Source: a virus. Taken from it: 64,000 nucleotides of DNA. Numbering within the stretch: position 1 is the first letter of the stretch; every line of letters begins with the position of its first letter. This document shows, in pieces, positions 2,970 through 37,231 of this stretch. The translations under genes were made by a program, and so were the position numbers. Location: positions 3,410 through 67,409 of the IMG/VR virus record IMGVR_UViG_3300045988_143165; one strand, written 5' to 3'. The notes under the pieces are model-generated. The model worked only from the letters and a program-made list of their open reading frames with translations. It searched no databases and had not been told where the DNA came from.

Positions 2970-4169
2970 TCAATATATTGTACTTCCTTTGTTGGTTCTC
3001 TTTATATCTTCTGAAAATTTTGTATTAGATAAATATATATTATCGAAATGTTTTAACAAATCTTGAATTTTACAATTACCTGCAATTTCATTATCCGTAT
3101 AATTCAAATGAGTAATCATAACAGAAGTTTTTGTTCCGCTGATTTTTTCTCTTGCTCTTTGTATATCAGCTTTCACTCTATTGATAAACTCATCATAATC
3201 AAACATTCCATACCTTATTGTTTGCTGGTAATCGTTATAACAGTTTGTAAGGTCAGTTATATCTTTATTTATATCCGACTTATCACATTCTGTTGGTAAT
3301 GTTCCTGCTCCGTGTCTGGTAAAATAAGACCTTGTAATATAACAAATTTCAACATCGCAATCAAAATCATTAACTCTTTGAATGGGTGTATAAGAAGTAG
3401 TATTACTTGCTGTGATGTATGGCAATGCTTTTAGATTATTCTCATCAAGTTCAAGACCTTGCGCACCCTCAAATATAATGGTATTATACTTATTTCGGAT
3501 TCTATCGAAATCACACATAAAAGTTATATATTGCATTTCTCTTAAATCACTAACGAAATGTTCAATTAACCCTTTAGACTTTATCAGCTCTTGATATTCT
3601 TGTGGAATTTCTGTTATTCCGTATTCAAATAATTTTTTAGGTAAATAAACATTTGCTATATTATGTAGATAATCTACAACATCTTTATCGTTCATATGAG
3701 ATAGTTGGTTATAATCTAATGCAAAAACACCATCATCATACCTTTTTTGTGTTTCCCAAATACCATAACCACAAGAACCGTGTCTTTTATTCTCTCTATG
3801 TATTTCAACAATTTGATTGATAAACATATCATACATAGTGCTTACTCTACATTTAGGAGAAATCATACATATAGGTTTGATGCCATATTTTTTAAGCTCA
3901 TTATATTCTTGAATGAAGATTGCAGGATTAACCATAAAGTTTTGGTCAAAGTATGTATGAGCATTATCAAATGTGCCACTTCCAAAATGATGGAAAATAT
4001 GCCTTGTGCCATCTTTAAGTTCGACAGTATGACCTCGTTGACATCCTCCATTAAATAAAACATTTAAGCACTTATTTTTCGCGGATTGAGAGAAAAAATG
4101 TGTTGCCAATCCTTTTCCTTCATCTCCATAATTACTACCTATTACTACTTTGACCTTAACTTTACTCAT
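2970..4169 (-). CDS. adenylosuccinate synthetase family protein (PurA-like; PurZ candidate)
   Basis: P-loop GDEGKGL and GGCQRGHT, FEGAQG, TASNTTS, TRHGAG motifs align with E. coli PurA along the whole length. Confidence 0.8.
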   Translation of the reverse strand: MSKVKVKVVIGSNYGDEGKGLATHFFSQSAKNKCLNVLFNGGCQRGHTVELKDGTRHIFHHFGSGTFDNAHTYFDQNFMVNPAIFIQEYNELKKYGIKPICMISPKCRVSTMYDMFINQIVEIHRENKRHGSCGYGIWETQKRYDDGVFALDYNQLSHMNDKDVVDYLHNIANVYLPKKLFEYGITEIPQEYQELIKSKGLIEHFVSDLREMQYITFMCDFDRIRNKYNTIIFEGAQGLELDENNLKALPYITASNTTSYTPIQRVNDFDCDVEICYITRSYFTRHGAGTLPTECDKSDINKDITDLTNCYNDYQQTIRYGMFDYDEFINRVKADIQRAREKISGTKTSVMITHLNYTDNEIAGNCKIQDLLKHFDNIYLSNTKFSEDIKRTNKGSTIY

Positions 4170-4175
4170 TATTTA

Positions 4176-5033
4176 TCACCAAGAAATTTCAGTATTTGTA
4201 TTTGCAACTTCCTCATCTTTTGCATTGGTTATAATATTAACAATAGTGCTTGCAATATTATTCAATCCAACAGTAAGGAAATGTTTGTTATCAAGATACT
4301 TGCTATAAGTATTGTTAATACCATCTTTATGCCAAGAATAACTTGTAGCAGTATCATCAATAGCCAAGTGGTAAATATCAAATTTTTCACTTGCCGCCTT
4401 ATAAAGTGTTTCTGTTTCAACATCAGTCTGCAATGAATCTCCGGTTACGGCACTTAATCTATTTGCAGGAAGATAAGGATTTAATGATTCATCTCCCATT
4501 GTAATGATAATGCCTTTCTTACCACGCTTCCAGCAATCGAGGTCGGTGTGTTTTAATCCAAAATACCACGCAGCAGTATATGACTCAAATGAATTACCGC
4601 CACCACCTCTTTCAAAATAAATTTTATCAAGCTGCTCGGCAATACGAACATCTGATTCAAACTGTGAAGCCTGAATAGGTGCATTATCATAAGCCAAATC
4701 GCCAATACCCATAACAAGGAATTCCACGTCAGTTACTTCCTCATAGAGTCTTGTCATAACCTCATTGAGTTTCTTTGCGACTTCTGCGGCAGCACTACCC
4801 ATACTACCCGTAACATCAAGAGCAAGAATAACTGGGATTGTATTAGGATGTTCGTCTGAATCACAACACTGACGAACTACATTATAAGGGTCTAATTCAG
4901 GTTGAATACATCTTGACTTAAATAAATCCTGTGCAGAATAACTCTTATCTAAATTACCGTCATCAAGAACAGTTCTACCAACAGATTTTGAGTAAATTGT
5001 ATAATCACTTGTAGTCCAAATTCCGCAACCCAT
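4176..5033 (-). CDS. von Willebrand factor A domain protein
   Basis: MIDAS-like VILALDVTGSMGS segment and a beta-rich vWA-sized body. Confidence 0.55.
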   Translation of the reverse strand: MGCGIWTTSDYTIYSKSVGRTVLDDGNLDKSYSAQDLFKSRCIQPELDPYNVVRQCCDSDEHPNTIPVILALDVTGSMGSAAAEVAKKLNEVMTRLYEEVTDVEFLVMGIGDLAYDNAPIQASQFESDVRIAEQLDKIYFERGGGGNSFESYTAAWYFGLKHTDLDCWKRGKKGIIITMGDESLNPYLPANRLSAVTGDSLQTDVETETLYKAASEKFDIYHLAIDDTATSYSWHKDGINNTYSKYLDNKHFLTVGLNNIASTIVNIITNAKDEEVANTNTEISW

Positions 5034-5629
5034 TATTCTGCCTCCTTATCTTCTGTTACTTCTTCATCATTGTTATCGGAATCGAACATACCATCAAATA
5101 TATCGGTAAACCTATTTCCGCCACCAAGCAACATAAATGGAAGCATTGAAGCCATACCATTATCACCCATTGTTCCGCCATTGCTGCCCTTCATCATTTC
5201 AGACATCATCATATAGGACATCATTTTGCCCATACCTTTTTTACCCTTCATCAAGTCGTTTCCGAACATTGAAACAATCTTGCCGTAAAAATATGTATTA
5301 CCCATAAAAACGTGGCGTTCTGGAAGAATGTCCTTAACAGTTGAATCCTCATAATCAATGACCTTAATTGTATCATTATTTACTGCAATAACACACTTTG
5401 GCTTGCCTGATACAAGAATAATGTCGCCAGCTTCAACTTTATTAGTAGGAATTACAAAGAAAAATTCCTCACCAAGATTGAAAACGAAGTTATTGCAATT
5501 TGTAAGTCTATTTTTCTTGATATTATAAGTCTTATAACCATCACTTGTCTTTACGGCAACCTCACCGTTCATTGAAAGTCTGCACATTCCGTTGGCTACT
5601 TTGCCAAACATACCATTGAACATATTCAT
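5033..5629 (-). CDS. hypothetical Gly/Met-rich protein
   Basis: ORF with a Gly/Met-rich low-complexity C-terminus. Confidence 0.4.
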   Translation of the reverse strand: MNMFNGMFGKVANGMCRLSMNGEVAVKTSDGYKTYNIKKNRLTNCNNFVFNLGEEFFFVIPTNKVEAGDIILVSGKPKCVIAVNNDTIKVIDYEDSTVKDILPERHVFMGNTYFYGKIVSMFGNDLMKGKKGMGKMMSYMMMSEMMKGSNGGTMGDNGMASMLPFMLLGGGNRFTDIFDGMFDSDNNDEEVTEDKEAE

Positions 5630-5646
5630 TTCTTAATCTCCTTTAA

Positions 5647-6417
5647 TTATTTCTTTTTATCTTCAAGCCACTTATTATCAACGACATAAAAACCTACTAC
5701 CAATCCACCTATAAGTAATATCCAAAAAATCCAAAAAACTATTATCTGCCATTCGGACTCAAGGTTTTCGATTGTATCTTCAATATTCTTATCATAATAA
5801 AAGTGAACATTAGAAATTGTATTATCTTTAAGTACAGCGTATAGTGTTCCTTTACATTCGGCAGGAGCAGCATAATACACATATCTTATATCTCCTGATG
5901 AATGCCACCAATCACCATCTACATATATCGTTTTTATTTCTCTTTCACTTGGTAAATGAATTGTATCATAAGGAAACTCAACACCAATAAAATCAATCTT
6001 TGTAGAGCTTTTTGATTCTTGGCTAACATAATCCCAAGTATAATATTCTTCTGTTTCCGTATATGTTTCGGTTTTGCCTTTTGAGTTTGTTCTCGTTTTT
6101 GTTACCGTGCTTGTGTGTCTTGTATATTTCTCTTTGACTTTCTTTATATAGGAGAAGTCTCCTTCAATTTCATCATAAGAAACTGTATCAACAGCTTTAA
6201 GTTCACCATATACGAAAGCATTACCTATGTTTGTTCTCATACCGTGTTGAAATACATCTTTGTTATTATCTATCTGCAATGCCGTGTTGTATTCCTGATA
6301 ATCATTCATTAAAGAATTACTTATTCCGGATGAAATCATAAAACCAAACACAAGCATTACAGCAATAATGATAATACTAAAAAGGACTTCGCGCTTGGTT
6401 ACTAACCTCTTATCCAT
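5647..6417 (-). CDS. membrane protein (DUF2207-like partner of LemA?)
   Basis: N-terminal and C-terminal transmembrane segments, and adjacency to LemA. Confidence 0.4.
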   Translation of the reverse strand: MDKRLVTKREVLFSIIIIAVMLVFGFMISSGISNSLMNDYQEYNTALQIDNNKDVFQHGMRTNIGNAFVYGELKAVDTVSYDEIEGDFSYIKKVKEKYTRHTSTVTKTRTNSKGKTETYTETEEYYTWDYVSQESKSSTKIDFIGVEFPYDTIHLPSEREIKTIYVDGDWWHSSGDIRYVYYAAPAECKGTLYAVLKDNTISNVHFYYDKNIEDTIENLESEWQIIVFWIFWILLIGGLVVGFYVVDNKWLEDKKK

Positions 6418-9440: not shown

Positions 9441-9615
9441 TGCTGTAATAGAAAGACATATAATCAACTCCTTTCATTTTCAACGAAGCGCCAAGTATAT
9501 CCACCTGCGCTTTACGCTCATATTTATTATTACAAACATCGCTTATTCGTTTATAATTTGTTCCTGTTATTAGTTAAACACCTAACAGATTTTCTTCGAT
9601 AAGTTGATTATTCAT

Positions 9616-10551
9616 TTATGTATCTCCTTGTTTGACATACTTTTTATAATTACAACATACATTTTCAAAAAATCTTTCCCAATCACCATTGCTCAAATCG
9701 TATTGTGATATTGAGTGTTTAATACAAAAATCACTATTTGAAAATGCTTTAATCATATTTTGAATTGGTGGTTGTCTATCTCGGCGTATTACCTGACCTA
9801 AATTTCGGAATACAATCCACGCTTCATTTCGTAATATGATTTCGCCCCAACAATCTGAATAACAAAACTTTTCTTTGTTACTTAAATCAATGCCAAAATA
9901 CTTTTTGGCACGATATACCAAGGGTGTTCCATTGTCACTTGGGTCAGATGGTCTATGTAAGGGTGAAAAGAAATCCCTGTGTTTAATCCAAAGGTCATCA
10001 CCTTTTACAACACATTGACACTTGCACTTGTTTAGAATCCAATCCGCTGAAAAACTTTGCTTTACTCCTTTTAATTCTGCTGGTTTTGATAATTTTGGCT
10101 GACCGTAAAATCTATATGAAACCACTTCGCAAAAAAGCGGTGCTGTAAAAAATAATTCGTAAACTTCGGCAGGATTAGAATAAGTAAATGTTATAGGATA
10201 AACTAAACTATCGTTTGACATAAACTGATATTCAACAATGTCATAATACAAATCATCAGCATTGTCTTTATATAGCCTAAATCGTAACATACCATCTTGT
10301 AATTGATACTTATACCATTCTCTTGTTCTATTTTGAGGAATTTTGTGTATTACTAAAAGTTCAGATTTGCTTTTTAACTCTTGAATAGTATCAAGATAGG
10401 ACATATCTGTATATGGTTGAATATCTGTAACATTTTCAGAGCTAAAAACCTGTCTTGCTTTTTCAGCAGTTTCAGCATAAATTAAAGGTTTTGCATTAAA
10501 TTCCTCTATTGTTAAAATCCAGCGTTTCATAGTTTGTAATAATGACTCCAT
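9616..10551 (-). CDS. hypothetical protein
   Basis: 311-aa ORF. No motif recognised. Confidence 0.4.
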   Translation of the reverse strand: MESLLQTMKRWILTIEEFNAKPLIYAETAEKARQVFSSENVTDIQPYTDMSYLDTIQELKSKSELLVIHKIPQNRTREWYKYQLQDGMLRFRLYKDNADDLYYDIVEYQFMSNDSLVYPITFTYSNPAEVYELFFTAPLFCEVVSYRFYGQPKLSKPAELKGVKQSFSADWILNKCKCQCVVKGDDLWIKHRDFFSPLHRPSDPSDNGTPLVYRAKKYFGIDLSNKEKFCYSDCWGEIILRNEAWIVFRNLGQVIRRDRQPPIQNMIKAFSNSDFCIKHSISQYDLSNGDWERFFENVCCNYKKYVKQGDT

Positions 10552-10626
10552 TTATGTAATCATTAGACAACCAATTTTGTGAATGGTCGTTAATGTCATC
10601 ATCTGATATTTCATTTCAAAAACCTC

Positions 10627-10962
10627 TTACTGAAATAATTTTCTGCAATATCCCATTTGAGCTAAATATCTTTTGAAATAAATATTTATACCATTGTGTG
10701 ATTTCTCTTTGAATGTAATAATTTTATACGGGAATCTATCAAGTGATACTACTAAATACTCAAAACCATTTATTGCAATATTCACACTACCATCTGTATT
10801 AAAATAAGCCAAAATAGGATGTTTAATTGAATGTTTTATATTTAGGTTGGGGCATCTTTTGTCAATCATTTCTTTTGCGTGTTTTGTTAATATGTAATTA
10901 TTCGCAATCTCGTTAAGCTCATTATGTTTTAATAATTGTCCTCTATGTCGAATCTGAATCAT
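10627..10962 (-). CDS. hypothetical protein (start uncertain)
   Basis: ORF overlapping the 3' end of the Dam-like methyltransferase in another frame. An internal Met was chosen as start. Confidence 0.3.
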   Translation of the reverse strand: MIQIRHRGQLLKHNELNEIANNYILTKHAKEMIDKRCPNLNIKHSIKHPILAYFNTDGSVNIAINGFEYLVVSLDRFPYKIITFKEKSHNGINIYFKRYLAQMGYCRKLFQ

Positions 10963-11478
10963 ATGTAACCTTCTTTTCAACAGTACATAATGTGTCATTC
11001 TTGCTGCCGCCGTGGGCAACAACAAGAATTTCAATTATTTCAAATCCTCTTTTCTTGCCAACACCATTTGTATTCCAACCAAAAGAAAGACAAACTCCAT
11101 TCGGTTTAAGAATACGAGCAATCTCATCAAGATGTTTTGCTCTCCAAGATGCTTTTGTATGTTCTGCGGTTACTTTGATACCAACACCCTCATAGCATTC
11201 TTTTACTTGACGAAGCGAATATGGTGGGTCATATAAAACCACATCAGCAGATTCACTTTCTATCAACTTCAAAAAGTCTAAAGCATCTAAATGATATGTA
11301 GTATCAAATTTTGGATTTAAGTCATTAGTAATCGTTCCTATATGACAACCATTTGCAAATGGGTCAACAATTACTTTGTTTTTATCCCCCTGGCGGTGTA
11401 TCTCACCACAAGTTCTTTTATTGGAGGAATACTAAATGTTTTGCAGTTAGGCATAGCCCATACTCTGTTTACAATCAT
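10943..11478 (-). CDS. phage Dam-like N6-adenine DNA methyltransferase. Needs a -1 shift at a G5 tract to join the N-terminal ATG to the DPPY frame
   Basis: The frame carrying VIVDPFANG...VVLYDPPYS...ILKPNGVCLSFGW has no Met anywhere (163 codons from stop to stop). The upstream frame has RBS gagggtataaaATG with MIVNRVWAMPNC.. (W-x-x-P like the family N-terminus). The two frames fuse if the G5 at 11387-11391 (minus sense) were G6. Confidence 0.55.
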
Positions 11479-11490
11479 TTTATACCCTCA

Positions 11491-11676
11491 TCACAAGCCA
11501 AACTTCGTTTTGAGCTTTTCCCACAATGTCGGCTGGTGTTTATTACAATGGCAGGGATAATGACGGATTGAACCGTCACGTCCACACTTGATATATTTCT
11601 CACCAAGATTTGCTTTTTGTTCATATTTACATTTCATTTTCATTATCCTTCCTTTGGAAAAGAATATGGTTTGCAA
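11491..11676 (-). CDS. small Cys-rich protein
   Basis: KCKYEQ...KCGRDG...CHC zinc-ribbon-like pattern. Confidence 0.3.
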   Translation of the reverse strand: MQTIFFSKGRIMKMKCKYEQKANLGEKYIKCGRDGSIRHYPCHCNKHQPTLWEKLKTKFGL

Positions 11677-11960
11677 ATTATATAATTACTCATTGCCAAT
11701 AAATCCATAAGTTCTCCTTTTATGTATTTCTCAATATTATTTCTTAATAATAAAAAATTATTGCATTTCTATCAATTTATATGAATTCCTTAAAGCACTA
11801 TGACCTATCGTTGAAGTTATTGTTCCAATCGTTGTTTGGTCTGCTCTAATATTACAATTATAGTTATCATAAAAAATAGCAATATAGGGAGTTTAAGGTA
11901 CATTATGAGTAATAAAAATGATATTTTATGTATTTGCTTTTGTGTTGCTCAATAATGTTT

Positions 11961-12251
11961 TTAAGTAACAACAAATTCGCTAATTGCCGAATAAATATCC
12001 TTTTCGCAAACACACCATATTGTATTCCAATCTACTTCGTGAGCAGTATGCTCTCTTTCAGACTGTTCTCTCTGTGCCATAATCAAAGAACAAAGTAATG
12101 ACTTCGCGGATATATCCCAATCATTTCCATTTTCATCTTTGCCTATGAGTCGCACATCACAATCAATTGTGCTTACTATATTGGTAAACTTTTTAACAGC
12201 AGTAATATTTGATAGCTCAATTTTTGCTTTCATATTTCCACCTCTTTTCAA
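11961..12251 (-). CDS. hypothetical protein
   Basis: ORF with RBS. No motif recognised. Confidence 0.4.
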   Translation of the reverse strand: MKRGGNMKAKIELSNITAVKKFTNIVSTIDCDVRLIGKDENGNDWDISAKSLLCSLIMAQREQSEREHTAHEVDWNTIWCVCEKDIYSAISEFVVT

Positions 12252-12319
12252 CTTTATCTAAAGTATATCATAGGATTTAATGTATGTCAATCGTTTTTCT
12301 CAAAATTATTTCTTATTTT

Positions 12320-16130: not shown

Positions 16131-16718
16131 TTACATCACCTCTTTTATAGACTCAATGTATTCTTCCGAAGCGTAAAATGGAACACTCATTAACTCTCTC
16201 CGAATTTCGTCATACATCTTGTGTAATTTTGGATTAACCCATTTTTGCCATTCTCTGCGATTATCGGCAACCATTAAGGCTCTTACTTGTGTAGCCGAAA
16301 TAGGTATTTTTCCACGGCTTACAATAATTTCTGTAACATCCTTAATATCATCTGGGTCAAACCATCGAGACCGGCTTTCATCATTACCGTATATCATAAG
16401 TTCAGGCGTCTTATAAATATAACGGTCAATATTATCAAGTAAGTATCGACCCCATTCAGGTCTAATATCATTTTCATTCGTTAAATCAGAAATACCCTTA
16501 ATAATAATTGAGCCATCATCACCGTAAATAGCTCTCAACATTCTTATTCTTGTGTCAATGTTTAGTGGATTTCTTTCTGTTCCACATTCCTGCGAAGAAC
16601 CGACCAAAATTAACACCCTATCACACAGTTTTAACGCCGTATCAACAAGTGATTCGTGACCGATATGAAAAGTTTGAAATCTGCCACAAATAACACCTAC
16701 ATCATATGGTTTGCTCAT
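16131..16718 (-). CDS. nadM: nicotinamide-nucleotide adenylyltransferase (NadM/NadR-type NMNAT)
   Basis: ICGRFQTFHIGH, the (H/T)xGH motif, and a C-terminal ISATQVR (ISSTxxR) motif. Confidence 0.75.
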   Translation of the reverse strand: MSKPYDVGVICGRFQTFHIGHESLVDTALKLCDRVLILVGSSQECGTERNPLNIDTRIRMLRAIYGDDGSIIIKGISDLTNENDIRPEWGRYLLDNIDRYIYKTPELMIYGNDESRSRWFDPDDIKDVTEIIVSRGKIPISATQVRALMVADNRREWQKWVNPKLHKMYDEIRRELMSVPFYASEEYIESIKEVM

Positions 16719-16732
16719 ATTTTATCTCCTTA

Positions 16733-17023
16733 TCAGAAAAAGTTGAATAATAAACTACCCTCAGAAGTTCTTATATCAACGATAGCATTTTCAATTTTAG
16801 TTGTTTCTTTTGTCTCTTTAACCTTTTGGTTGGAGCAAGCGGCAAATGTAAAACACATTATAATACCCATAAAGAAAGCAATAATCTTTCTCCATAAAGG
16901 CATTTTCTTTATTTTAATAGTTTGCTCTTTAGCCTTTGCCTCACAACTCGGACAAACCATTCTGCCTTCGGGAACATAAGCTCCACAACTCACACATCTA
17001 TCATACATTTTCTTTATCCTCAC
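16733..17023 (-). CDS. zinc-ribbon membrane protein
   Basis: CVSCG...CPSCE followed by a TM helix. Confidence 0.4.
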   Translation of the reverse strand: MRIKKMYDRCVSCGAYVPEGRMVCPSCEAKAKEQTIKIKKMPLWRKIIAFFMGIIMCFTFAACSNQKVKETKETTKIENAIVDIRTSEGSLLFNFF

Positions 17024-17579
17024 TATGAATTATTTCTTCAAATGTTCTCGGCGTATAATTCATATAAGGAATCATACAACCAACATTAAACATATTGCAG
17101 GGCTTGTCGTAGAGAGCAACCATTTCATATTTAACTCTCTGCATCATATTCCACTCAAATGAATTATGAACGTGTCCGTAAAAATGGTAAGCACCATAAT
17201 AGTGTCGGTTAAAACAAGGTATAGGGTAGTGGGATAAAATAATGTCATTGCCGTTAATTTTGATTTCTTTGTAATCAACGATTTCAATGAACAAGTCTCT
17301 GATATTCTTGCTTTTAAGTAGTTTTCTATCGTGGTTTCCTATGCAAAGATGTTTGTTTCCATTTAATTGACTGAATACCTCAATAGTCTTTGTTGTGTTA
17401 CCCCAACAAATATCTCCGAGAATCCATACATCATCGTCAAATCCGACAGTTCCATTCCATCGTCTTATAAGTTCGGTATCGTGTTCTTCAATCGTCTTAA
17501 ATGGTCTATTGTCAAATGAGAGACAATTTTCGTGGCTGAAATGCTAATGCAAGTCAGCTATAAAATACATCTGACTCAT
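17001..17579 (-). CDS. calcineurin-like metallophosphoesterase interrupted by an in-frame TAG (pseudogene or readthrough)
   Basis: RBS GGAGGT plus ATG gives MSQMYFIADLH, then TAG (17544-17546), then HFSHEN..GDICWG..GNHD..GHVHN in the same frame with no internal start. Deleting the 6 nt tagcat restores the family motif DLHFSHEN. Confidence 0.55.
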
Positions 17580-17749
17580 ACACTCAACACCTCCAATCTA
17601 TTCCATTTTCTTTTCGTTAGAAATATATTTAAGATTACGAAACCAATCAGCTATGCACATAATTCCAAGTATTGCTCCAATCATTACACCTATTCCAAAT
17701 CCTACCCAAAACATTTAACCGACCTCCTATTATGTCATCATTCTTTATT

Positions 17750-18971: not shown

Positions 18972-19853
18972 TTACAATTTTCTTAACACAAAGTCAGGGC
19001 TACTAAATCCTGCTGCACCCTTATGACCGCCACCACCATATTTCATAGCAAGCACTGCACAGTCAACCTTTGTGGAACGCAATGAATAATTCCAATTATC
19101 TCCATCATATGAGAATCCAATTAGAATATCGTAATCGTTTATATTATCAATGACAAAATCATCACTGCTAACCATAGCCATATTGATAGCAAAACATTTG
19201 TAATCTTCAAGAATTGCTTCAAATCCCTTATTTTCACAATACTCTGCCATCATACATTTTCTATATTCAATAATTATCTTCCCTGCTTCTATAATCTGAT
19301 TCATTTCATCTGATTCACAGAATATATTGCTCCATAAATTATCCCAGATTTTATCCTCTGGTTCGTGTGGATATAATTCAAAGCCTTTTTGAAATCTTCT
19401 TGTCTTATCTCCAAACTCAAAAGTCCAAACATCATAATCCGCAATTAACTTCGTAAACATCGGAGCTGACACAACCATTTCAGGTGTAAATCCTTTAGTT
19501 CCATCAGTAAGAAATGAAAGATAACAATAAGTAAGCATACAACCAGCAATACCGTCATACCTTAACCCTTTAACTTCTTTATCATAATTCTTATATTTTT
19601 CAATTGCTGATTTATGATGGTCAATCCAAATGACATTACTCGTAATTTCAAGTAACTTATCCATTTCTTCCGGAGAAATAGAATAATCTACAATATATAC
19701 AATTTCATTCTTTCCAATAGAGTCAAATGGGAATTCTATCCCATAATTTATTTTGATATATTCATCGGTAAAGTTGTCAGTTAATTTATTTAAGGTTTTT
19801 ACCCAATAACCCGCACATTTACCATCATTGTCTGAATGATAAAATACTTTCAT
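18972..19853 (-). CDS. DHH-family phosphoesterase (NrnA-like nanoRNase / pAp phosphatase)
   Basis: YHSDNDGKCAGY, WIDHHKSA (DHH) and a C-terminal GGGGHKGAAG (GGGH) motif. Confidence 0.6.
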   Translation of the reverse strand: MKVFYHSDNDGKCAGYWVKTLNKLTDNFTDEYIKINYGIEFPFDSIGKNEIVYIVDYSISPEEMDKLLEITSNVIWIDHHKSAIEKYKNYDKEVKGLRYDGIAGCMLTYCYLSFLTDGTKGFTPEMVVSAPMFTKLIADYDVWTFEFGDKTRRFQKGFELYPHEPEDKIWDNLWSNIFCESDEMNQIIEAGKIIIEYRKCMMAEYCENKGFEAILEDYKCFAINMAMVSSDDFVIDNINDYDILIGFSYDGDNWNYSLRSTKVDCAVLAMKYGGGGHKGAAGFSSPDFVLRKL

Positions 19854-19862
19854 AAAACACTC

Positions 19863-20153
19863 CTAACTATAATCAAATTGACCGTTTTTCCAAAAATCTT
19901 CGGAAAACAATTCATTATGTAATTCTTTAGTTTGTCCTGATTCAAAAGCAATTTTAGCCGCTTCTGTTCTATTAACAAAATGAATTGGTCTTTCATTGGT
20001 TATGAAACCCATTTCATAATTTGTTCTATCATATATAATTCCATCATTTTTCATATTTTGAAAAATTTCTGCGTGATTCCAACCAAAATAAATTCTTTCT
20101 TTATTCGGGTTATCTAATTCAAAAAACTTAATAGCTGCCCTTGCAATTTTCAT
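19863..20153 (-). CDS. hypothetical protein
   Basis: ORF. No motif recognised. Confidence 0.35.
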   Translation of the reverse strand: MKIARAAIKFFELDNPNKERIYFGWNHAEIFQNMKNDGIIYDRTNYEMGFITNERPIHFVNRTEAAKIAFESGQTKELHNELFSEDFWKNGQFDYS

Positions 20154-20510: not shown

Positions 20511-21281
20511 TTAAATAATCCTCTCAATCTTATCATAGTGAAGAATAAATTTATCCATAATGGCTTGTTCATTATGATAATGACCAAAATACCACTTGGT
20601 AAATTTAAGTTCACGAGCTATTTCACCAAGATACATTGTTAAAATATCAGGTTTGTAATATCCGTGAGAAATATATGAAACAATATCTTGAGGCGCACAA
20701 TGAGTAATTACATAATCGACTTCATAATTTACCTTTTCTAATTCCCGTCTGCCTCTCTGCATTTCATAGTACGATGGAAGTTCTTTTTCCCACCAAGATA
20801 TGTGGTCAATTCTCAACATTTGCCCTGCTCTGGTTCTTGTATTATAATCCTTAACCAAATCACTCAATGTTGAATAATCTTCAATTTTTAATATACCGTC
20901 TTGAATATCGTGACTACTTGCTCCGCCAAAAGTAAAGAACTTCTTGCCTTCAAATTCAAATACATAACCTCTCATAAGATGATAGATATTGCTACGTATT
21001 CTATGAGCTTTACCGCCGTGATAATTAACAACCTTAAATTCTTTACTCAATCTATCAAAATTCTCGTGATTTCCATCAACAAATAATATCGTAAATGGTT
21101 TATCTTCAAGCCATTTTAACCAATATGTTTCTGTTTTGTCGGAATAAAGATAATTCCAAATTCCACCAAAATCACCACAAATTATCACAGAATCATCTTT
21201 AGTCATTTCCTTTTGTTCAGGAAAATTCTTTGTAGAAAATCTATTGAAATTTGCGTGAGTATCGCCTGTTATATAAATCAT
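20511..21281 (-). CDS. metallophosphoesterase (calcineurin-like)
   Basis: GDTH, GDFGG and DGNHEN motifs. Confidence 0.7.
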   Translation of the reverse strand: MIYITGDTHANFNRFSTKNFPEQKEMTKDDSVIICGDFGGIWNYLYSDKTETYWLKWLEDKPFTILFVDGNHENFDRLSKEFKVVNYHGGKAHRIRSNIYHLMRGYVFEFEGKKFFTFGGASSHDIQDGILKIEDYSTLSDLVKDYNTRTRAGQMLRIDHISWWEKELPSYYEMQRGRRELEKVNYEVDYVITHCAPQDIVSYISHGYYKPDILTMYLGEIARELKFTKWYFGHYHNEQAIMDKFILHYDKIERII

Positions 21282-22909: not shown

Positions 22910-23353
22910 TCAATGATATAATTGATATTTTTTACTTATGTAATGAGCCATATCATCTTTAAGAGGACAAAACCAAATTCCAGTTAGTGTTGTTCCGTTT
23001 TCTTCTGGTGTAAGCTCGGTAAGACAAGCATCATAAATTAAACCATAATGAACATTCTCTATCAGCCCAAGTTCTTGTGCAATCTTGACCGCTTTAAGTA
23101 AATGATTTTTATTCCTTGCTTCACAAATGGTTTTTGTAAATGAACCATTTAGATATTGTTCAAATATTTCTTTATCGATTATTCCTTTAATTTCATATCC
23201 GGCATAATCATCCAAAGGTTTCGCATAATTCCTTAATCCACGAGTCCAATATGCTTCGGCACAATGAGATACTTGGGCTGCAAGTTTGCCGGGAGACATA
23301 TTCAAATCTTTTCGCATTATGAATAATCTTCTCATTAAAATAGCTCCCACCAA
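22910..23353 (-). CDS. PTH2-family peptidyl-tRNA hydrolase-like protein
   Basis: RKDLNMSPGKLAAQVSHCA matches the PTH2 signature (DLxMxxGKxxAQxxHA). Confidence 0.5.
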   Translation of the reverse strand: MVGAILMRRLFIMRKDLNMSPGKLAAQVSHCAEAYWTRGLRNYAKPLDDYAGYEIKGIIDKEIFEQYLNGSFTKTICEARNKNHLLKAVKIAQELGLIENVHYGLIYDACLTELTPEENGTTLTGIWFCPLKDDMAHYISKKYQLYH

Positions 23354-23583
23354 TAATCAAAAATTCTCTTATAATCACAATGTCTCATATCGCCTTTATA
23401 TTTGCGTGCTTTCTTGCTTGATATTTTTTTAAGATACTTTTTATATTTCCTGCCACCACAAGAATATTTTATATATCTTCTTTTTTTCTCGTCATACCAA
23501 GCACCAGCACCATATGAATTCTTGGTTTCATTATAAAGTTTTTTAAGTCTGTGATTTCTTTCCTGACTTCTGCGATAACTCAT
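23335..23583 (-). CDS. small basic protein
   Basis: ORF rich in K/R/Y. Confidence 0.3.
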   Translation of the reverse strand: MSYRRSQERNHRLKKLYNETKNSYGAGAWYDEKKRRYIKYSCGGRKYKKYLKKISSKKARKYKGDMRHCDYKRIFDYWWELF

Positions 23584-24394
23584 ATTGCCCTCCCAAGTAT
23601 ATTAAATCATTGACATACTTTCGACCATCTTCCTTAAAAATAGGAGTTTCATTATCAATAATCCATTTACTTCTCCCTGTTGTTTCATCAATCTTACGAA
23701 TACAACAACTACCTCTCTTGTATTTCGTAGGACAATTATTCCAGTTGACACCTTTTTCGAGCATAAGCATATCCTGAATATCGCTTATAGATTTTTTATC
23801 TAACTGCTTATGAGAAAAATATGCTCTACCAACCATCTGAATAGAATTTCTGGTTGCATCATTCTGTCTCCAAAGCAAATTATTGCAAACCTCATCTTTT
23901 GGAATATTAAATACACGGGCATCAAACATTGCCCCTTTATCTATTGCTCTATTAAGTACCTCAATATATTCTGATTCGGGTGGAATATCTATATCTTGAA
24001 GTTCTAAAACCGAATTTATATAATCATTGGCTCTTTTATTGAAAAATTTATTAAAAGCCATTGTTGCCATACTGGCTGCAACGCTCGCACATTTTTGGAT
24101 ATTATAATCAAACCAAGCAGAAGTATCTATATTTCTGTAATCAACAAGAACAAGAGTAATCTCATCGGATTGTGTATATCCAAGAACGCAACCCTGAATA
24201 TTCTCACAAAGATACTTCATTGTCTCCTGCATAGTTTTAGAAAGCACATCATCAAAAGGTTTTTGAAAACCTCTTGTGAATGTATGAAATGCTTTACCGT
24301 CAATTCGTATAATAACTGGGGTTCGAGTTGTCAAATAGTGTCTCGACACAAATTCATACTTTTTCATTCTTTTATCAAATGCACTGTATTTCAT
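23543..24394 (-). CDS. Thg1-like protein (tRNA-His guanylyltransferase family, 3'-5' nucleotidyltransferase)
   Basis: N-terminal KYEFVSRHYL...VIIRIDGKAFHTFT matches the Thg1 family (FEYVR...RLDGRNFH). Confidence 0.65.
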   Translation of the reverse strand: MKYSAFDKRMKKYEFVSRHYLTTRTPVIIRIDGKAFHTFTRGFQKPFDDVLSKTMQETMKYLCENIQGCVLGYTQSDEITLVLVDYRNIDTSAWFDYNIQKCASVAASMATMAFNKFFNKRANDYINSVLELQDIDIPPESEYIEVLNRAIDKGAMFDARVFNIPKDEVCNNLLWRQNDATRNSIQMVGRAYFSHKQLDKKSISDIQDMLMLEKGVNWNNCPTKYKRGSCCIRKIDETTGRSKWIIDNETPIFKEDGRKYVNDLIYLGGQYELSQKSGKKSQT

Positions 24395-24960: not shown

Positions 24961-25054
24961 TGGCTCATATAGGATTTGAACCTATGTCTCCGGCAGTGTG
25001 CCTGATTTACACTACATACCTCCGCCAGTGTCTTAACCACTTGACCAATGAACC
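24961..25054 (-). tRNA. atypical 94-nt tRNA-like gene (anticodon arm irregular or with an insertion)
   Basis: Good acceptor (GGTTCAT/ATGAGCC), D-arm (GTC-AAGTGGTTAA-GAC) and T-arm (ATAGG-TTCAAAT-CCTAT). Between D-arm and T-arm there are 39 nt with a 5-bp stem (CTGGC/GCCGG) enclosing 29 nt that include a 6-bp hairpin with a 9-nt loop. Confidence 0.4.
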
Positions 25055-26536: not shown

Positions 26537-26774
26537 ATATGTATATGGCAAAGACCTTTATCTATCTAACTTTGCCCCTGTTAAACAGGTTTTAATCAGA
26601 CAAAAAAATACTCTTAATTTATCTTATGAAATACACAAAAACATAGAAAGGAAAGAGAGAGGTGAAAAATTCTGATTAGGTTTTGTAGTTATCGTATTTT
26701 GTTTTGCTCAATAATGTTTCTTAATGCTGGAAATTTCGGTCTCTTTGATTTTAGGGCTGCTGCCTTACCTCTTG

Positions 26775-26830
26775 GCGACTACCAACAATGTAGATAGGTG
26801 GGAATCGAACCCACGATTAGCAGCTTGATA
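26775..26830 (-). ncRNA. tRNA 3'-half-like cargo (T-arm plus 3' acceptor-like strand) inside structured-RNA unit (a)
   Basis: GTGGG-TTCGATT-CCCAC T-arm followed by CTATCTA. No matching 5' half was found downstream. Confidence 0.35.
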
Positions 26831-26969
26831 TTATGTATTTGAAGAAGGATGAAACCTTTCAGCCAGCTTATATTCAGAAATTTGAGGTTCTTATAATATA
26901 TAGATTAAAAGTCTATTCCTAATAGGTAGAAGGATGAATCTCAACAGCCGAATATTTATTTAACTTACA

Positions 26970-27035
26970 TTAGATATTATAGCACACATTTTACTATTTG
27001 TCAAGTGTTTTTCTCAATATTATTTCTAATTATTT
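26970..27035 (-). promoter_or_regulatory. consensus sigma-A-type promoter with conserved upstream element (P1)
   Basis: Minus sense: TTAGAAATAATATTGAGAAAAACAC, TTGACA, 17 nt, TATAAT. Confidence 0.55.
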
Positions 27036-27200
27036 GAAATTTATTCGATGCGGTAATTTTAACATCTAATAATACTATTGCACTACCAACTGTGCTACAT
27101 CCCATCTTCGATGGAATGGTGGGAGTCGAACCCACGACACATAGTTCCTTGATATATAGAAGGATGATGTTGGTCAGCCGCATATTTTGTATTGTGGAAA
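27030..27200 (-). ncRNA. Y-RNA-like structured RNA carrying a permuted tRNA-like module (unit c)
   Basis: Order on the minus strand: helix 1, internal loop, helix 2, AUCCUUCUA loop, ACTAT, variable GTGTC, T-arm GTGGG-TTCGACT-CCCAC, CATTCCA, loop TCGAAGA, TGGGATG, TA, D-arm GCAC-AGTTGGTA-GTGC, A, ATAGT, 7 nt, helix 2', loop, helix 1'. Acceptor-like strands pair 7/7 (one G-U) and anticodon-like strands 5/5, but the acceptor is capped by a loop. Confidence 0.55.
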
Positions 27201-27476
27201 TTTGTTTCTCTAAAATCTTAATCCCAAATCAAGTGCCTATTGGCGTAGAAGGATGAAAAACAATAGCCACATAATATTTAGAAAGAAGTGTGGGAATTTA
27301 ATGCTCTTTTTAGAAGAATTTGCAGTTCTTGATATTATGTAGAAGGATGAGCATTACAGCCACAAATTATGAATAGTGGAAATCGAACTTTCTATCTTAT
27401 CATCATTATGTAGGTGGCTTAACCACCGAAATTATTTTCTTGTAGAAGGAAGAAAGCCCATAGCCACAAAATACTT

Positions 27477-29726
27477 TTATAATAACTGACCCATAAAGTA
27501 ATCAGTATCGAAAGCCGTGATAATCGGAACTTCCGGCTTTTCCTTTACAACAGGTTTTGTAGTACCCGTAACCTCGTCAAGCTCATTTACAATTTCATAA
27601 GGTACTGTTGTATCATTGCTGAAAATGATGTCTGCTTCATTTCTATCTGTGACAATACTACCTCTTGCAATAGCATTCATCATTATGAGGTCATAAATAT
27701 TTGCCTTATTAAGATGTGTTAAGCCATAGCAAGTTGCGGTTACACCGTGTAAATTACTTTCAAGATTATTTCCATAAAACCTCGAACTTGCATTCTGAAG
27801 GTTCATATCACACCAAATGAATTTACGCTCAACGCAATCGAATATAACGGGTATAGCAACAGTGCTGTCAGCAGTTAAGTCAATCTTCATTTCAACTGTT
27901 TGCGGCTCGAATATCTCGCCGCTATTTATATCTTCTCTTTCCATCCATCCAAAACGGCAATTAGGAAGCGTAGAAAAATGCTGTCCTGTAAAACTATAAA
28001 CCTGAAATGCAATGTATCTACCAGTGTTTTTAGCAACTGCATCAATCTCTACATCAATAAACTCTGCTACACCATCACCATTAACATTTCCGCCATTGGT
28101 AATATCACCCGAATGATATGCTCTGTACTTTGCAGAGCGAAGTTGTGTGTATGATACACGGTCAACATACTGCCAATTTTCATCATAGATGGTTGCAGAA
28201 AGGTCAATATCAACCCTGCTTTCATCCCAGCTATTTCTCGTCTTATCGGTATTAGTCCACCAAATAAAACCACGAACAGCCGTAGCATCTTCCTTAATGG
28301 GCAATTTACTACCACGAACAATGGTCTTAACAGCCTTACTTGCACTTCTCTGACTAAACGGAACAAGGTAGTTTTTGAAATCCTCATCAATATAAACCTT
28401 TCCGAGAAAATCTTTTTCCTTGTACTGTTCAATTAAAGCCTCACGGCAAATCCTTGCAACATTTTTACATACATTGCTATTGATTTTAGGAAGTTCATTT
28501 CTGATAACCATAGCTTTTGCAAGGTTTCCTTTAGGAAAGAATACTCTTACAGGCTGATTATCATTCTCCATTCTTCCTATGAAATGCTGTCTTACCTGAA
28601 GGAGTACAGGAGTTGAGATTTCTGTTGCAACTTCCTTAAAACAGTTGACAATATAATTCGGATTATCTGCATCACGAACAAGTTTGTCAAGTTGCCTTGC
28701 GAACTCTCCGGGTCTTACTTTTAACAAGGTGGCAGCTTCACGCATATCTTTTGCGGTAATTGCTGCCTGAACCTTTCCTGCAAACATAAGAGGCTTTTTC
28801 TCGTTTCTTAAAGTATTGAATGCAGCGTTGACATTGCTATACTTTGCTTTTTTATATTCAAACGGATGAAGAATTTCTGCAACTCTAATCCATTCATACT
28901 GATAACGGAATAAATCCTCTGTTATGTTACCACAACCAGTAAGCAAGTCCATAATCATACGGCGTTCAACCCTACGAAGATTTCTGTACTTGGTTTTTGA
29001 AGCAAGGCTAATGTCGCCATCGGAAAGTGCTGTTACAAGTCGTAAAACATCCGTTGCGGTCTTGAAGTATTTGCCTATTGAATCGGCGCTTTTGATTGGC
29101 GCTTTTTCAATAATGAGTTTTCCAACGAATGCAACATTCTCTTTAAGAGGGATTGTATCAGGAAGATATGTAGTATAATCAGGACAAGCAAGAATGATAG
29201 TTTCAATGTCCTCTTTGTCCTGCTCCGAGATTGATGTCTTGCTCTCAACAAGATTTGTGAAAATAGTCATCAAATCATCGTGACTTCCTACTGATAAAAC
29301 AGCCATTTTATTGTCATCAATAAGCGGTAAACGCTCATTTTTTTCGTATTCGGGAATCAATGTGCCAAATGACCAGTAATGAACGATTGCATTGATAAAT
29401 AACTCAATGTCACTTGCTTCTGCAACCTGCTGTGGGAAGTTCGGGTACATTGGATTATATGTAACATCCGCACCAACAAGTTCTTTAAGTGCAGGAATAA
29501 GGAAACCATAGAAAGCAGTAAACTCATCTCTTGTAAAATGAAATGCTTTTTCAATAAGTTCCTTTGAAAATGTAAATCCAAGAGCCTGAACATTTTTCAA
29601 GCCGGAAACAACGAGTGCTTTTTCTGTCTTGCTCTGCTCATAAGTCATATTAGCAGGTTCAAACATCACTGAATGCTTACGGCGTAACAAAATCTTATCA
29701 AGTTCTGTTAATTTGAAATTCTTCAT
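27477..29726 (-). CDS. large hypothetical protein (749 aa). Alpha-helical N-terminal ~480 aa plus a C-terminal beta-rich region with a possible vWA-like DxSxT segment. Candidate RNA-binding partner of the flanking structured RNAs
   Basis: Long intact ORF with RBS aaaggagattattacaATG, flanked on both sides by the structured-RNA units. No secure motif recognised. A Ro60/TROVE-like assignment is only a hypothesis. Confidence 0.45.
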   Translation of the reverse strand: MKNFKLTELDKILLRRKHSVMFEPANMTYEQSKTEKALVVSGLKNVQALGFTFSKELIEKAFHFTRDEFTAFYGFLIPALKELVGADVTYNPMYPNFPQQVAEASDIELFINAIVHYWSFGTLIPEYEKNERLPLIDDNKMAVLSVGSHDDLMTIFTNLVESKTSISEQDKEDIETIILACPDYTTYLPDTIPLKENVAFVGKLIIEKAPIKSADSIGKYFKTATDVLRLVTALSDGDISLASKTKYRNLRRVERRMIMDLLTGCGNITEDLFRYQYEWIRVAEILHPFEYKKAKYSNVNAAFNTLRNEKKPLMFAGKVQAAITAKDMREAATLLKVRPGEFARQLDKLVRDADNPNYIVNCFKEVATEISTPVLLQVRQHFIGRMENDNQPVRVFFPKGNLAKAMVIRNELPKINSNVCKNVARICREALIEQYKEKDFLGKVYIDEDFKNYLVPFSQRSASKAVKTIVRGSKLPIKEDATAVRGFIWWTNTDKTRNSWDESRVDIDLSATIYDENWQYVDRVSYTQLRSAKYRAYHSGDITNGGNVNGDGVAEFIDVEIDAVAKNTGRYIAFQVYSFTGQHFSTLPNCRFGWMEREDINSGEIFEPQTVEMKIDLTADSTVAIPVIFDCVERKFIWCDMNLQNASSRFYGNNLESNLHGVTATCYGLTHLNKANIYDLIMMNAIARGSIVTDRNEADIIFSNDTTVPYEIVNELDEVTGTTKPVVKEKPEVPIITAFDTDYFMGQLL

Positions 29727-29821: not shown

Positions 29822-29966
29822 GGGAAATTTGATGGAAATTTTATACTCTATTCTTGTAGGCGCTCTATCCGATTGAGCTAACTACCCACGGGGTAGTGCC
29901 GGGCTTGAACCGACAACCTCCTGCTTAACAGGCAAAAGATTTAGAAGGATGAGTATTTTCAGCCAT
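29822..29966 (-). ncRNA. Y-RNA-like structured RNA carrying a permuted tRNA-like module (unit g), immediately 3' of tRNA-Lys
   Basis: Same architecture as unit c. T-arm GTCGG-TTCAAGC-CCGGC, ACTACCC, loop CGT, GGGTAGT (7/7 complementary), TA, D-arm GCTC-AATCGGATA-GAGC, anticodon-like stem CCTAC/GCAGG (4/5). Clamp helices ttgatgg/ccatcaa and atactc/gagtat covary with unit c. The D-arm and variable region resemble the adjacent tRNA-Lys. Confidence 0.55.
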
Positions 29967-30052: not shown

Positions 30053-30128
30053 TTGGGTGGAAGTAAAGGAATTGAACCTTTTCTTGCAGTGTCACAAACT
30101 GCCGTGCTTACCGTTACACTAACAACCA
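30053..30128 (-). tRNA. tRNA-His (anticodon GTG) with encoded G-1
   Basis: Anticodon stem GCAGT/ACTGC, loop TTGTGAC, extra 5' G opposite discriminator C, two U-U pairs in the acceptor stem, CCA encoded. Confidence 0.7.
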
Positions 30129-34992: not shown

Positions 34993-35760
34993 CTAATTTG
35001 AATGATATTCAAAGCACGGCATTAACTGTAACTTGAACATATTTTTTTCGTGCATTTCGTTAATTTTTGCCTTTACTTTTTCGTCATCACATATTCCAGT
35101 TCTTATATACTTATCAAGAACTGCATAGGTGAAGCCAAAACTATCTTCATCTGTCTTTCCACAAAGTCCATCTGTCGGAGTTTTGTGTGCAAGCTCATTA
35201 GGTAAGCCACAATCCTCTGCTATGGCAATTACTTCTGTTTTTGTAAGCATTGCAAGAGGACTAAAATCTCCTGCTGCATCACCGTATCGTGTAGAATAAC
35301 CGATATAATCTTCCGAAAGATTGCAGGTATTCATTACTCTGCCATTCATTGATTGAGATACAGCATATAATGTAGCCATTCTCAAACGAGCAGGAAGATT
35401 GATTTTAGTCTGTTCTGAAATATCAATAGGATAATAACCGTCAAAATTTGGGTCATAGTAATCATCAATATTACAGATTATTCCATTGTATGCTTGTTCA
35501 ATATTAACCTCTGTATATTTGATACCAAGATGTGAAACCAACTTAATAGCAGAATCAATATCTTTCTGCACGCCATTTGGCATAAGCACACCAAATACCC
35601 TGTCTTTCCCAAGTGCTTCAACGCACAAAGCAGCAACCGTGCTTGAGTCTATGCCACCTGAAATTCCGATAATAGCATTACAGTCTTTTCCATTTTTTTT
35701 AAATATATCTCTTATCCATTCAACAACATCATTTTTGACTTTTATTACATCAAATGTCAT
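34993..35760 (-). CDS. nadE: NH3-dependent NAD+ synthetase
   Basis: PP-loop GISGGIDSS. About 255 aa, typical NadE size. Distal part of the NAD+ salvage gene set. Confidence 0.8.
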   Translation of the reverse strand: MTFDVIKVKNDVVEWIRDIFKKNGKDCNAIIGISGGIDSSTVAALCVEALGKDRVFGVLMPNGVQKDIDSAIKLVSHLGIKYTEVNIEQAYNGIICNIDDYYDPNFDGYYPIDISEQTKINLPARLRMATLYAVSQSMNGRVMNTCNLSEDYIGYSTRYGDAAGDFSPLAMLTKTEVIAIAEDCGLPNELAHKTPTDGLCGKTDEDSFGFTYAVLDKYIRTGICDDEKVKAKINEMHEKNMFKLQLMPCFEYHSN

Positions 35761-37220: not shown

Positions 37221-37231
37221 TTCAATTCTCC

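Follow-up and report, generated by a model that had tools for sequence, protein, structure and literature searches.

Can a gene whose active-site motif is interrupted by a stop codon still specify its enzyme? The question is raised by a metallophosphoesterase gene (phrog_547; PF12850-PF00149 family) in 64,000 nucleotides (nt) of viral DNA (positions 3,410 to 67,409 of the IMG/VR record IMGVR_UViG_3300045988_143165; hereafter, the window). The gene (17001..17579; minus strand, as are all features of the site described below) consists of 192 codons and a stop, and is broken at codon 12. A Shine-Dalgarno (SD) sequence, GGAGG (17590..17594), lies 10 nt 5' of the ATG at 17577-17579, with which a mini-open reading frame (mini-ORF) of 11 codons starts: MSQMYFIADLH (17547..17579), encoding motif I (D-x-H) of the enzyme. 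The last codon of the mini-ORF, CAT for His11 (17547..17549; the proposed take-off codon), is followed by an in-frame TAG (17544..17546), which is the first codon of a 6-nt insertion, a second CAT (17541..17543; the proposed landing codon), and TTC (17538..17540; the would-be resume codon). Past the TAG, the frame reads HFSHEN and has 180 open codons up to the stop at 17001-17003, with GDICWG, GNHD, and GHVHN. The best reading of this site, to which we give about an even chance, is that the insertion confers immunity to a homing endonuclease and is bypassed by ribosomes through a hop from the first His codon to the second across the stop (a His-to-His stop-hop).

The gene product matched phrog_547 (E=1.1e-44) and PDB 1xm7 (E=4.5e-12), and had 1908 homologs; precomputed PF12850/PF00149 annotations were found on homologs. 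The metal-binding motifs D-x-H, G-D, G-N-H-D/E, H, and G-H-x-H were all encoded, with TAG CAT parting D-x-H from the rest, and were contiguous in one frame only when the hexamer was skipped. Deletion of TAGCAT in silico gave DLHFSHEN, the family motif; no residue was found between the motif-I His and the Phe in any member of an alignment of 119 homologs, and a two-residue insertion at His/Phe occurred in no homolog. Most of these features had been recognized in a previous, sequence-only reading (a strong ribosome-binding site and ATG, MSQMYFIADLH-TAG-HFSHEN with all metallophosphoesterase motifs in frame, and the restoration of DLHFSHEN by removal of TAGCAT); they were read again at 17001-17579, the last in agreement with the alignment. 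On the other hand, that reading saw no alternative start for 180 codons, whereas an in-frame TTG was present 84 codons 3' of the TAG; the 97-amino-acid fragment proposed by gene callers begins there, without motifs I-III. Its remark on a duplication-like CAT-TAG-CAT proved to be the key clue, the consequence being a matched pair of take-off and landing codons: in the window, CAT and CAT would be readable by one tRNA, and the landing codon lies directly 5' of the resume codon. The site at 17544 was unique on both strands of the window as a stop between identical codons at the head of an open frame 100 or more codons long. A hairpin (or pseudo-palindrome), GCUGA-CU-UGC-AUUA-GCA-UU-UCAGC, is predicted at 17535..17558 (z = -2.8), with the take-off codon and stop at the apex; its outer arms, GCTGA/TCAGC, were present in the intact allele too, at a spacing of 8 nt vs 14.

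A sequencing or assembly artefact was ruled out with near certainty by the nonamer CAT TAG CAT, which was present in all 19 further loci (~17 independent contigs, from ENA, Logan, JGI, and NCBI assemblies) of the window lineage, and in an isolate genome of another lineage (lineage 5). The loci with this TAG allele comprised L001 and L002 from IMG/VR, L045, L115, and L116 from Logan, L046-L055 from ENA/NCBI (ten, 17-535 kb), and L075 and L076 from metagenome records. The 20 loci of the window lineage formed nine haplotypes, none of which had a further stop or frameshift. P0123 and other very close relatives (loci L056-L061) possessed an uninterrupted MNTYFIADLHFSHEN gene, the ATG of which overlaps the stop of a 50-amino-acid membrane-protein gene; these intact-allele sister genomes were otherwise the same phage. 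Comparison with orthologs, as recommended in the sequence-only reading, found them to be without the insertion. In a search of deposited phages for close relatives, megablast gave 0 matches, and the best tblastn match was 42.5% identical. Several apparent further cases were rejected: the split-gene look of Enterococcus and Vibrio phage matches (two features) was due to tandem paralogs, or to an overlap of 4 residues with the ORF before it; the Gln that P0001 shows in place of the TAG, a seeming sense variant, came from a gene call under a TAG-sense code only, the DNA being TAG; P0126 (a 48-amino-acid call), a seeming case of further decay, had an intact frame and was a gene-caller artefact; and P0258, a seeming interrupted copy, was intact. 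L046-L053 are contigs of 264-535 kb, L054 is NCBI GCA_021634335.1 ('Ruminococcus sp.'), and in 6 of 8 very long contigs, which differ in length, the gene was located ~50 kb from a contig end. L055 continues into bacterial-looking genes (FUR, radical SAM, DUF4153), and a jumbo phage or a large Ruminococcus prophage are both possible.

Alignment of the two allele types revealed how the insertion is bounded. Upstream of the hexamer, the first 11 codons and the leader were unrelated between TAG and intact alleles; downstream (17001..17540), the DNA was 98-99% identical to the intact sister alleles, homology restarting exactly past the hexamer, which is therefore the homology breakpoint. The intact sister alleles begin ATG AAT ACA TAC TTT ATT GCT GAT TTA CAT, and the sole variable site in the mini-ORF among TAG alleles was a synonymous TTG/CTG. 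In L049 and L075, an ORF of 347 amino acids was located between the membrane-protein gene and the TAG allele, its TGA overlapping the ATG. This ORF (8676-9719 in L049) contained two LAGLIDADG motifs, LGLLISDGS and IGFIDGDGN, scored over the cutoff for Pfam LAGLIDADG_3 (29.7 bits) and Hom_end (23.0 bits), and belonged to the PHROGs endonuclease family phrog_4645; a single-sequence query retrieved no relatives of the gene from IMG/VR. The remaining TAG-allele genomes showed at least five distinct deletion states of the endonuclease gene, all linked to the TAG allele, and no traces of the gene were found in intact-allele genomes. The gene was, in other words, polymorphic for presence and absence among otherwise near-identical genomes, together with an adjoining divergent donor tract. 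Each deletion left the SD, ATG, and phosphoesterase frame untouched, and the GGAGG survived in every deletion derivative of the cassette and likewise in other lineages. In the window, a remnant of the LAGLIDADG gene (DWFRNLKYIS vs SWCRNLKYIS of the full enzyme) with its 3' end and leader occupies 17595..17648, and a 38-amino-acid fusion ORF (17598..17714), composed of the first 22 codons of the 50-amino-acid membrane-protein gene and endonuclease remnants, is the scar of the deletion that removed the endonuclease.

On this alignment, TAGCAT forms the right-hand edge of a mobile cassette consisting of the LAGLIDADG gene, an SD leader, and a replacement 11-codon N-terminus, so that the mini-ORF derives from the cassette and is not the resident N-terminus. 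The cassette invaded the phage lineage and displaced the start that the phosphoesterase gene had before; its endonuclease gene is intact in some relatives, has been lost by several independent deletions in others, and has decayed to scraps in the window. The endonuclease probably cuts the endonuclease-free allele and spares its own; this immunity is suggested by the location of the hexamer inside an invariant motif and by the conversion of the pseudo-palindrome GCTGA-N8-TCAGC to N14. A group I intron or intein was excluded, since the two parts of the gene are just 6 nt apart and the resident exon 1 is not located upstream of the endonuclease gene. Elsewhere in L049-L061, the stretch downstream of an NAD-dependent DNA ligase gene (corresponding to ~9500-12300 of the window) was highly mosaic, with variable presence of DNA methylase genes with an embedded HypA-like segment, S-adenosylmethionine synthetase, GroEL (Cpn60), and small ORFs among genomes that are near-identical otherwise, which suggests further mobile-element traffic.

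The same codon was interrupted in other phages. IMG/VR, JGI metagenomes, and GTDB genomes were scanned for DNA patterns, and truncated gene calls were inspected; together, these searches yielded 12 further lineages of the enzyme family (13 in all; pairwise protein identity mostly 28-49%) with an insertion at the identical position, within the codons of the invariant motif D-x-H/F-x-H-x-N (the slash marks the site). The insertions were 4, 5, or 6 nt in size, these being the lengths at which the scans were aimed. CAY-TAG-CAY was present in five lineages with 28-42% protein identity: CAT TAG CAT in the window lineage, L065/L078/L079, L068, and L084 (= L102, from the cultured Ruminococcus sp. YE282, which carries it in a provirus on NZ_FMUV01000001.1), and CAC TAG CAC in L073/L074. 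The other eight carried TAGCTT (CAT TAG CTT, L110), TAGAT (CAT TAG AT, L114), TAAC (CAT TAA C, L112), TAAT (CAT TAA T, L118), TGAC (CAT TGA C, L117), or TGAAT (CAY TGA AT, L119, L120, and L121). In each lineage, an SD and start were followed by a short mini-ORF ending in D-x-His, an immediate stop, and then 170-195 open codons in the appropriate frame; carriers spanned phages of 30-55% GC.

Two rules emerged from this comparison. The stop directly followed the His codon in 13 of 13 lineages, a result that was partly forced by the search patterns and arose unforced in the scan with a free middle codon and in the inspection of truncated gene calls; for the two protein-based discoveries, the chance that the first triplet would be a stop was ~0.002. 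Furthermore, the triplet before the resuming TTY matched CAY at two or more of three positions in 13/13 and was xAY in 12/13: the match was perfect in five, confined to positions 2 and 3 in seven, and at positions 1 and 3 in one. The third base was always a pyrimidine, sometimes unlike that of the take-off codon, and the chance of this rule at positions unconstrained by the search was roughly 5e-4. No sense-codon version of the insert was found in IMG/VR by the free-middle-codon scan, all being TAG, in spite of the fact that 8 of the 9 single-base changes of TAG would yield a sense codon. Where an intact sister was known, the duplicated His codon equalled the resident codon: CAC in lineage 4, and CAT in lineages 1 and 5. 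L119, L120, and L121, in phages of 33-47% GC, were only 41-49% identical to one another and used CAC or CAT for take-off, yet shared an identical TGAAT with both halves of the frame open.

Endonuclease-like genes also accompanied several of these copies: a LAGLIDADG homolog in L065 (28% identical to that of L049, and intact if TGA is Trp), an HNH endonuclease ~730 nt upstream in L120, a NUMOD3-bearing ORF directly upstream in L118, and intein-like and DUF559-like elements adjoining the gene in L110. In the last (4784-6405), the helicase gene immediately upstream of the interrupted phosphoesterase had an intein-like junction (...ALVHNS) and was overlapped by a DUF559/Vsr-like endonuclease ORF. 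The LAGLIDADG gene of L065 (4243-5145) contained four in-frame TGAs, two of them aligned with Trp, and ended with TAA, and treating TGA as sense nearly doubled the long-ORF content of the locus; L065 and L078 evidently represent a TGA-recoded phage, which has TAG in its His-TAG-His insert. Use of this endonuclease as a decaying internal clock was withdrawn, since all four "stops" were TGA, two at Trp, in a TGA-recoded phage.

In the mechanism that we propose, the insertion would split the DNA target of the endonuclease and thereby protect carriers from cleavage, as T4 gene 60 is shielded from MobA by its 50-nt insert, in a target that is unable to vary because it encodes the active site. During translation, peptidyl-tRNA-His on CAU, with the slowly decoded UAG in the A site, would detach and re-pair with the CAU located 6 nt downstream. 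Decoding would restart at UUC, such that nine nt specify one His, and the exact DLHFSHEN enzyme would be made, probably at reduced yield; the hop across TAG would give the junction peptide MSQMYFIADLHFSHENCLSFDNR. The 4- and 5-nt variants elsewhere would be passed in the same way, with xAY triplets as landing sites. That these lineages constitute a natural family of very short bypasses (+4, +5, and +6 nt from a His codon), carried as a portable device by unrelated LAGLIDADG, HNH, and NUMOD3-bearing endonucleases, is a proposal that we put a little short of even.

The dependence on amber suppression that had been offered in the sequence-only reading fared poorly. Readthrough at this single site by a near-cognate (e.g., Gln, Tyr, or Lys) or suppressor tRNA would yield DLH-X-H-FSHEN, with two extra residues. 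A 6-nt insertion does preserve the frame, UAG followed by C is a relatively leaky termination context in E. coli, and one gene caller read the codon as Gln under a TAG-sense code. However, neither the window nor any locus examined contained a CUA-anticodon tRNA: none occurred among the 13 tRNAs of the window, as already reported, a permissive Rfam scan of the tRNA region added none, and ARAGORN found none at any of the loci, the window and ~20 kb around relatives being covered. Readthrough would not rescue the variants of 4 and 5 nt that occupy this site, produces an insertion between His and Phe that no homolog tolerates, is difficult to reconcile with the missing sense-codon variants, and leaves the duplicated His codon unexplained; we regard it as improbable. 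Genome-wide TAG-to-Gln reassignment, with the window as a standard-code-compatible early region and a suppressor tRNA elsewhere in a genome of several hundred kb, appears more improbable still. In its favor, TAG was the rarest terminator (TAA 62, TGA 20, and TAG 3 among 85 non-overlapping minus-strand ORFs), contigs of 264-535 kb leave most of the genome outside the view, and there are recoded gut phages whose early regions follow the standard code (bioRxiv 10.1101/2021.08.26.457843). Nevertheless, nearly all genes of the window (34% GC) lie on the minus strand and were intact under the standard code. TAG terminated three ordinary genes, including a T4_Y16D homolog with the same end and length in relatives, and, when three alternative stop sets were compared, TAG as sense joined no other ORF pair meaningfully. 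The recoding prediction of further in-frame TAGs also failed, no other interrupted gene being found in the window. Moreover, the TAG sits in an insertion that is absent from all orthologs and replaces no Gln codon, the intact-allele sister genomes are otherwise the same phage, and the same device was found in a TGA-recoded phage, at 30-55% GC, and with TAA or TGA for TAG.

Several observations were made on decoding genes near the site. The T4_Y16D homolog (19863-20153, minus strand) ending with TAG is in frame with a DHH-family gene (18972-19853) that starts three codons later, and TAG readthrough would fuse both. A 94-nt tRNA-like gene (24961-25054, minus strand; Rfam tRNA model, 51.5 bits) was called by ARAGORN as tRNA-Pro(AGG) in the window and with a four-base anticodon (GGTA) in L057; it has a ~22-nt hairpin insert in the anticodon-loop region, lacks U33, and is variably present in relatives. 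Its candidacy as a hop-promoting tRNA was rejected, its presence or absence being uncorrelated with the TAG allele. The window also encodes a Thg1-like enzyme (tRNA-His guanylyltransferase family; 23543-24394), a PTH2 peptidyl-tRNA hydrolase (22910-23353), and tRNA-His(GUG) (30054-30128), and tRNA-His is encoded in L117 (8967-9042), an unrelated phage with a 4-nt interrupted copy.

The main rival, which we think possible and give a substantial minority share, is a null allele: the insertion only disrupts the target, as an immunity mark or repair scar, translation ends at codon 12, and the enzyme is lost. Such alleles would resemble the function-destroying resistance alleles of gene drives, and would spread or persist through endonuclease drive or resistance and through the dispensability of the enzyme, their ORFs looking intact only because the events are young. 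The "very recent pseudogene" of the sequence-only reading holds insofar as the insertion is derived, is absent from orthologs, and disables the gene under standard decoding; it is a poor fit to the ~17 additional assemblies, the nine haplotypes undamaged further, the link to an endonuclease cassette, and the 12 other lineages. A number of points nevertheless weigh against the bypass and, in large part, for the null allele. Intact sister alleles with 97-99% identity are known for lineages 1 and 5; the interrupted alleles may thus be young, and intactness of the ORF would be explicable without selection. In the unconstrained part of the ORF, nonsynonymous and synonymous changes stood at a ratio (N:S) of 9:5, which is intermediate between neighboring genes (126:135) and neutrality (~3:1) and differed significantly from neither; the ratio of their rates (dN/dS) in the TAG clade was based on few changes in a sample biased by exact-identity retrieval. 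The window copy has Ser56Cys, beside the GD motif, at a Ser conserved in 99%. Insert lengths (4, 5, or 6 nt) vary at one fixed position, as repair scars do. The landing triplet of L110 (CTT) is unmatched, and those of seven lineages pair at only two of three positions; L110 and L114 resemble damaged landing codons, the former as CAT mutated to CTT and the latter as the lineage-5 nonamer minus one C. Other phosphoesterases are encoded nearby in the window (a 256-amino-acid Metallophos gene at 20511-21281 and the DHH-family gene). The searches themselves favored the outcome: the +4 and +5 scan patterns forced T-R-R after the His codon, a bias toward stop codons, and many loci were fetched by exact protein identity, a bias toward intact copies.

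The origin of the insert and the signals around it also belong on this side. TAGCAT is the reverse complement of ATGCTA in CAT GCT AAY just downstream in lineages 3-5, and templated repair could therefore duplicate the His codon without selection. No RNA structure was shared across lineages, three of five folds being significant and all different, and a tunnel signal of the gene 60 type is unlikely because the nascent chain has just 11 residues; no stimulatory RNA structure or nascent-peptide signal of that type was found. Stimulators are dispensable for synthetic stop-hops, but their absence predicts a low efficiency, and stop-hops without them are low-level (bioRxiv 10.1101/2024.12.09.627546). 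In L068 (170-205), the 5' arm of a 9-bp perfect stem, CAUUAGCAU/AUGCUAAUG (z = -4.5), holds the codons for take-off, stop, and landing. This stem results from the complementarity of TAGCAT to ATGCTA in the downstream His-Ala-Asn codons, and may be a take-off stem-loop of the gene 60 kind or else the footprint of a templated (snap-back) insertion.

On the other hand, a null allele leaves several regularities unexplained: stop-first inserts, including the two found unforced; A-pyrimidine ends that do not copy the third base of the take-off codon; the absence from IMG/VR of a sense-codon version; and the identical TGAAT in three deeply diverged genes. The 15 amino-acid variants in the window lineage avoided family-conserved columns (P=0.0015; 0.006 by distinct positions). 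No second disabling lesion was found in the nine haplotypes or 13 lineages, evidence that is weak and partly biased, the neutral expectation for the window lineage being ~1-3 with P(0) of ~0.05-0.3. All deletions of the endonuclease spared the SD and ATG. Inside the mini-ORF, synonymous variation occurred across cassettes: the Leu before the take-off His was TTG, CTG, CTC, or TTA, and Ser was AGT, TCG, or TCT. The selection tests lean to function, but weakly; the invariance of TGAAT leans the same way, as do the stop-first and xAY-last rules across lineages with no sense-codon or two-residue versions.

The bypass reading may be compared with known systems. As a recent preprint states in its account of Huang et al. 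1988 and Bonocora et al. 2011, the insert of T4 gene 60 blocks self-cleavage by MobA and outlasts the endonuclease, and UAG immediately follows the take-off codon of a matched pair; in the same account, MobA travels with a divergent donor tract and an insertion that lies where the target gene is highly conserved (bioRxiv 10.1101/2022.08.31.505936). The present locus resembles this system in having an insertion in conserved active-site codons of a phage enzyme, linked to a free-standing homing endonuclease, with donor-derived divergent sequence between the endonuclease gene and insert; in the stop directly past the take-off codon and the match between take-off and landing codons; and in the decay or loss of the endonuclease, which differs in type by genome, when the insert stays. 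It differs in the length of the insert (4-6 nt vs 50 nt), in the host gene (an unsplit metallophosphoesterase vs topoisomerase), and in the endonuclease (LAGLIDADG, and also HNH and NUMOD3 types, vs MobA). Take-off at codon 11 allows no long nascent-peptide signal, and there is no conserved take-off stem-loop, internal SD, forward-slippage barrier, or sequence homology between cassettes; bypass here is a proposal.

In the synthetic "stop-hops" of E. coli, a stop lies between two matched codons, and a single amino acid is encoded by nine nt (Weiss, Dunn, Atkins & Gesteland 1987, according to PMC5009743), and the same review, from 2016, stated that no natural occurrence was known (PMC5009743). 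CAT TAG CAT has exactly this configuration, for which no further signal was needed; however, those sites were engineered and inefficient, whereas the present ones are natural and recurrent across lineages, with the hop being a prediction. Release factor 2 (prfB) requires a programmed +1 frameshift at CUU UGA C. The 4-nt variants (CAT TGA C, CAT TAA C, and CAT TAA T) similarly have a stop in the A site behind a sense codon, and only a forward shift leads to the downstream frame, but re-pairing of tRNA-His at +1 (AUU) is impossible, an upstream SD at the spacing of prfB is lacking, and a +1 shift would add a residue to the invariant motif, which a +4 hop would not. The Byp elements of Magnusiomyces capitatus mitochondria, as outlined in the preprint on gene 60, are short mobile inserts in essential coding sequence that are bypassed (bioRxiv 10.1101/2022.08.31.505936). 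They resemble the present inserts in being neutralized by bypass, and tolerate imperfect matches between take-off and landing sites; they differ in being 27-55 nt long, GC-cluster-like, and mitochondrial, with an unassigned sense codon rather than a stop as the slow codon. Recoded phages (TAG to Gln, TGA to Trp; bioRxiv 10.1101/2021.08.26.457843) share an in-frame TAG, a gut-metagenome origin, and a large, tRNA-rich genome with the present phage, which differs from them in the single site, the use of TAG as a terminator, the insertion of a codon rather than replacement of a Gln codon, and the lack of a suppressor tRNA at the loci searched.

Other features of the window were as follows. At 26750-27480 (minus strand), and also at 29833-29942, six spaced copies of the motif GGCT-N9-10-CATCCTTCTAC were interleaved with tRNA-like pieces. 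Sub-threshold matches to Rfam YrlA (Y RNA-like) were obtained at 27076-27143, 26758-26822, and 29833-29942 (the last to the full model, 34.6 bits vs a gathering score of 69), and T-arm fragments resembling those of transfer-messenger RNA occurred in the same array. This array, between two tRNA clusters, looks like a set of permuted tRNA-like or Y-RNA-like modules. Genes resembling those for auxiliary metabolism or defence were found at 35760-37265 and 16131-16718; 2970-4169; 31187-32791; and 55287-58349: for NAD salvage, NAMPT plus a nicotinamide mononucleotide adenylyltransferase-like gene; adenylosuccinate synthetase; an SPFH/Band 7 protein; and a 1020-amino-acid protein in which an N6 DNA methyltransferase is fused to an SNF2 helicase.

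For annotation, the site matters because gene callers give a 97-amino-acid fragment or silently adopt a TAG-sense code. Either of the two main readings is directly testable, since a cultured carrier (Ruminococcus sp. YE282) is available and the construct required is tiny. If the allele is null, it would be a clean natural case in which, within phage populations, endonuclease drive or resistance fixes loss of function at a conserved target. T4 gene 60 is essentially the sole example of efficient bypass from bacteria or phages. If the site is bypassed, minimal stop-hops are used in nature, and this would be the first natural one; its 9-nt system, with natural 4-, 5-, and 6-nt variants, would serve to dissect the rules of take-off and landing. 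The pairing of an endonuclease with a bypassed insert would then be a general evolutionary solution, and the phosphoesterase genes would represent a second, independent, and far simpler invention of the gene 60/MobA strategy.

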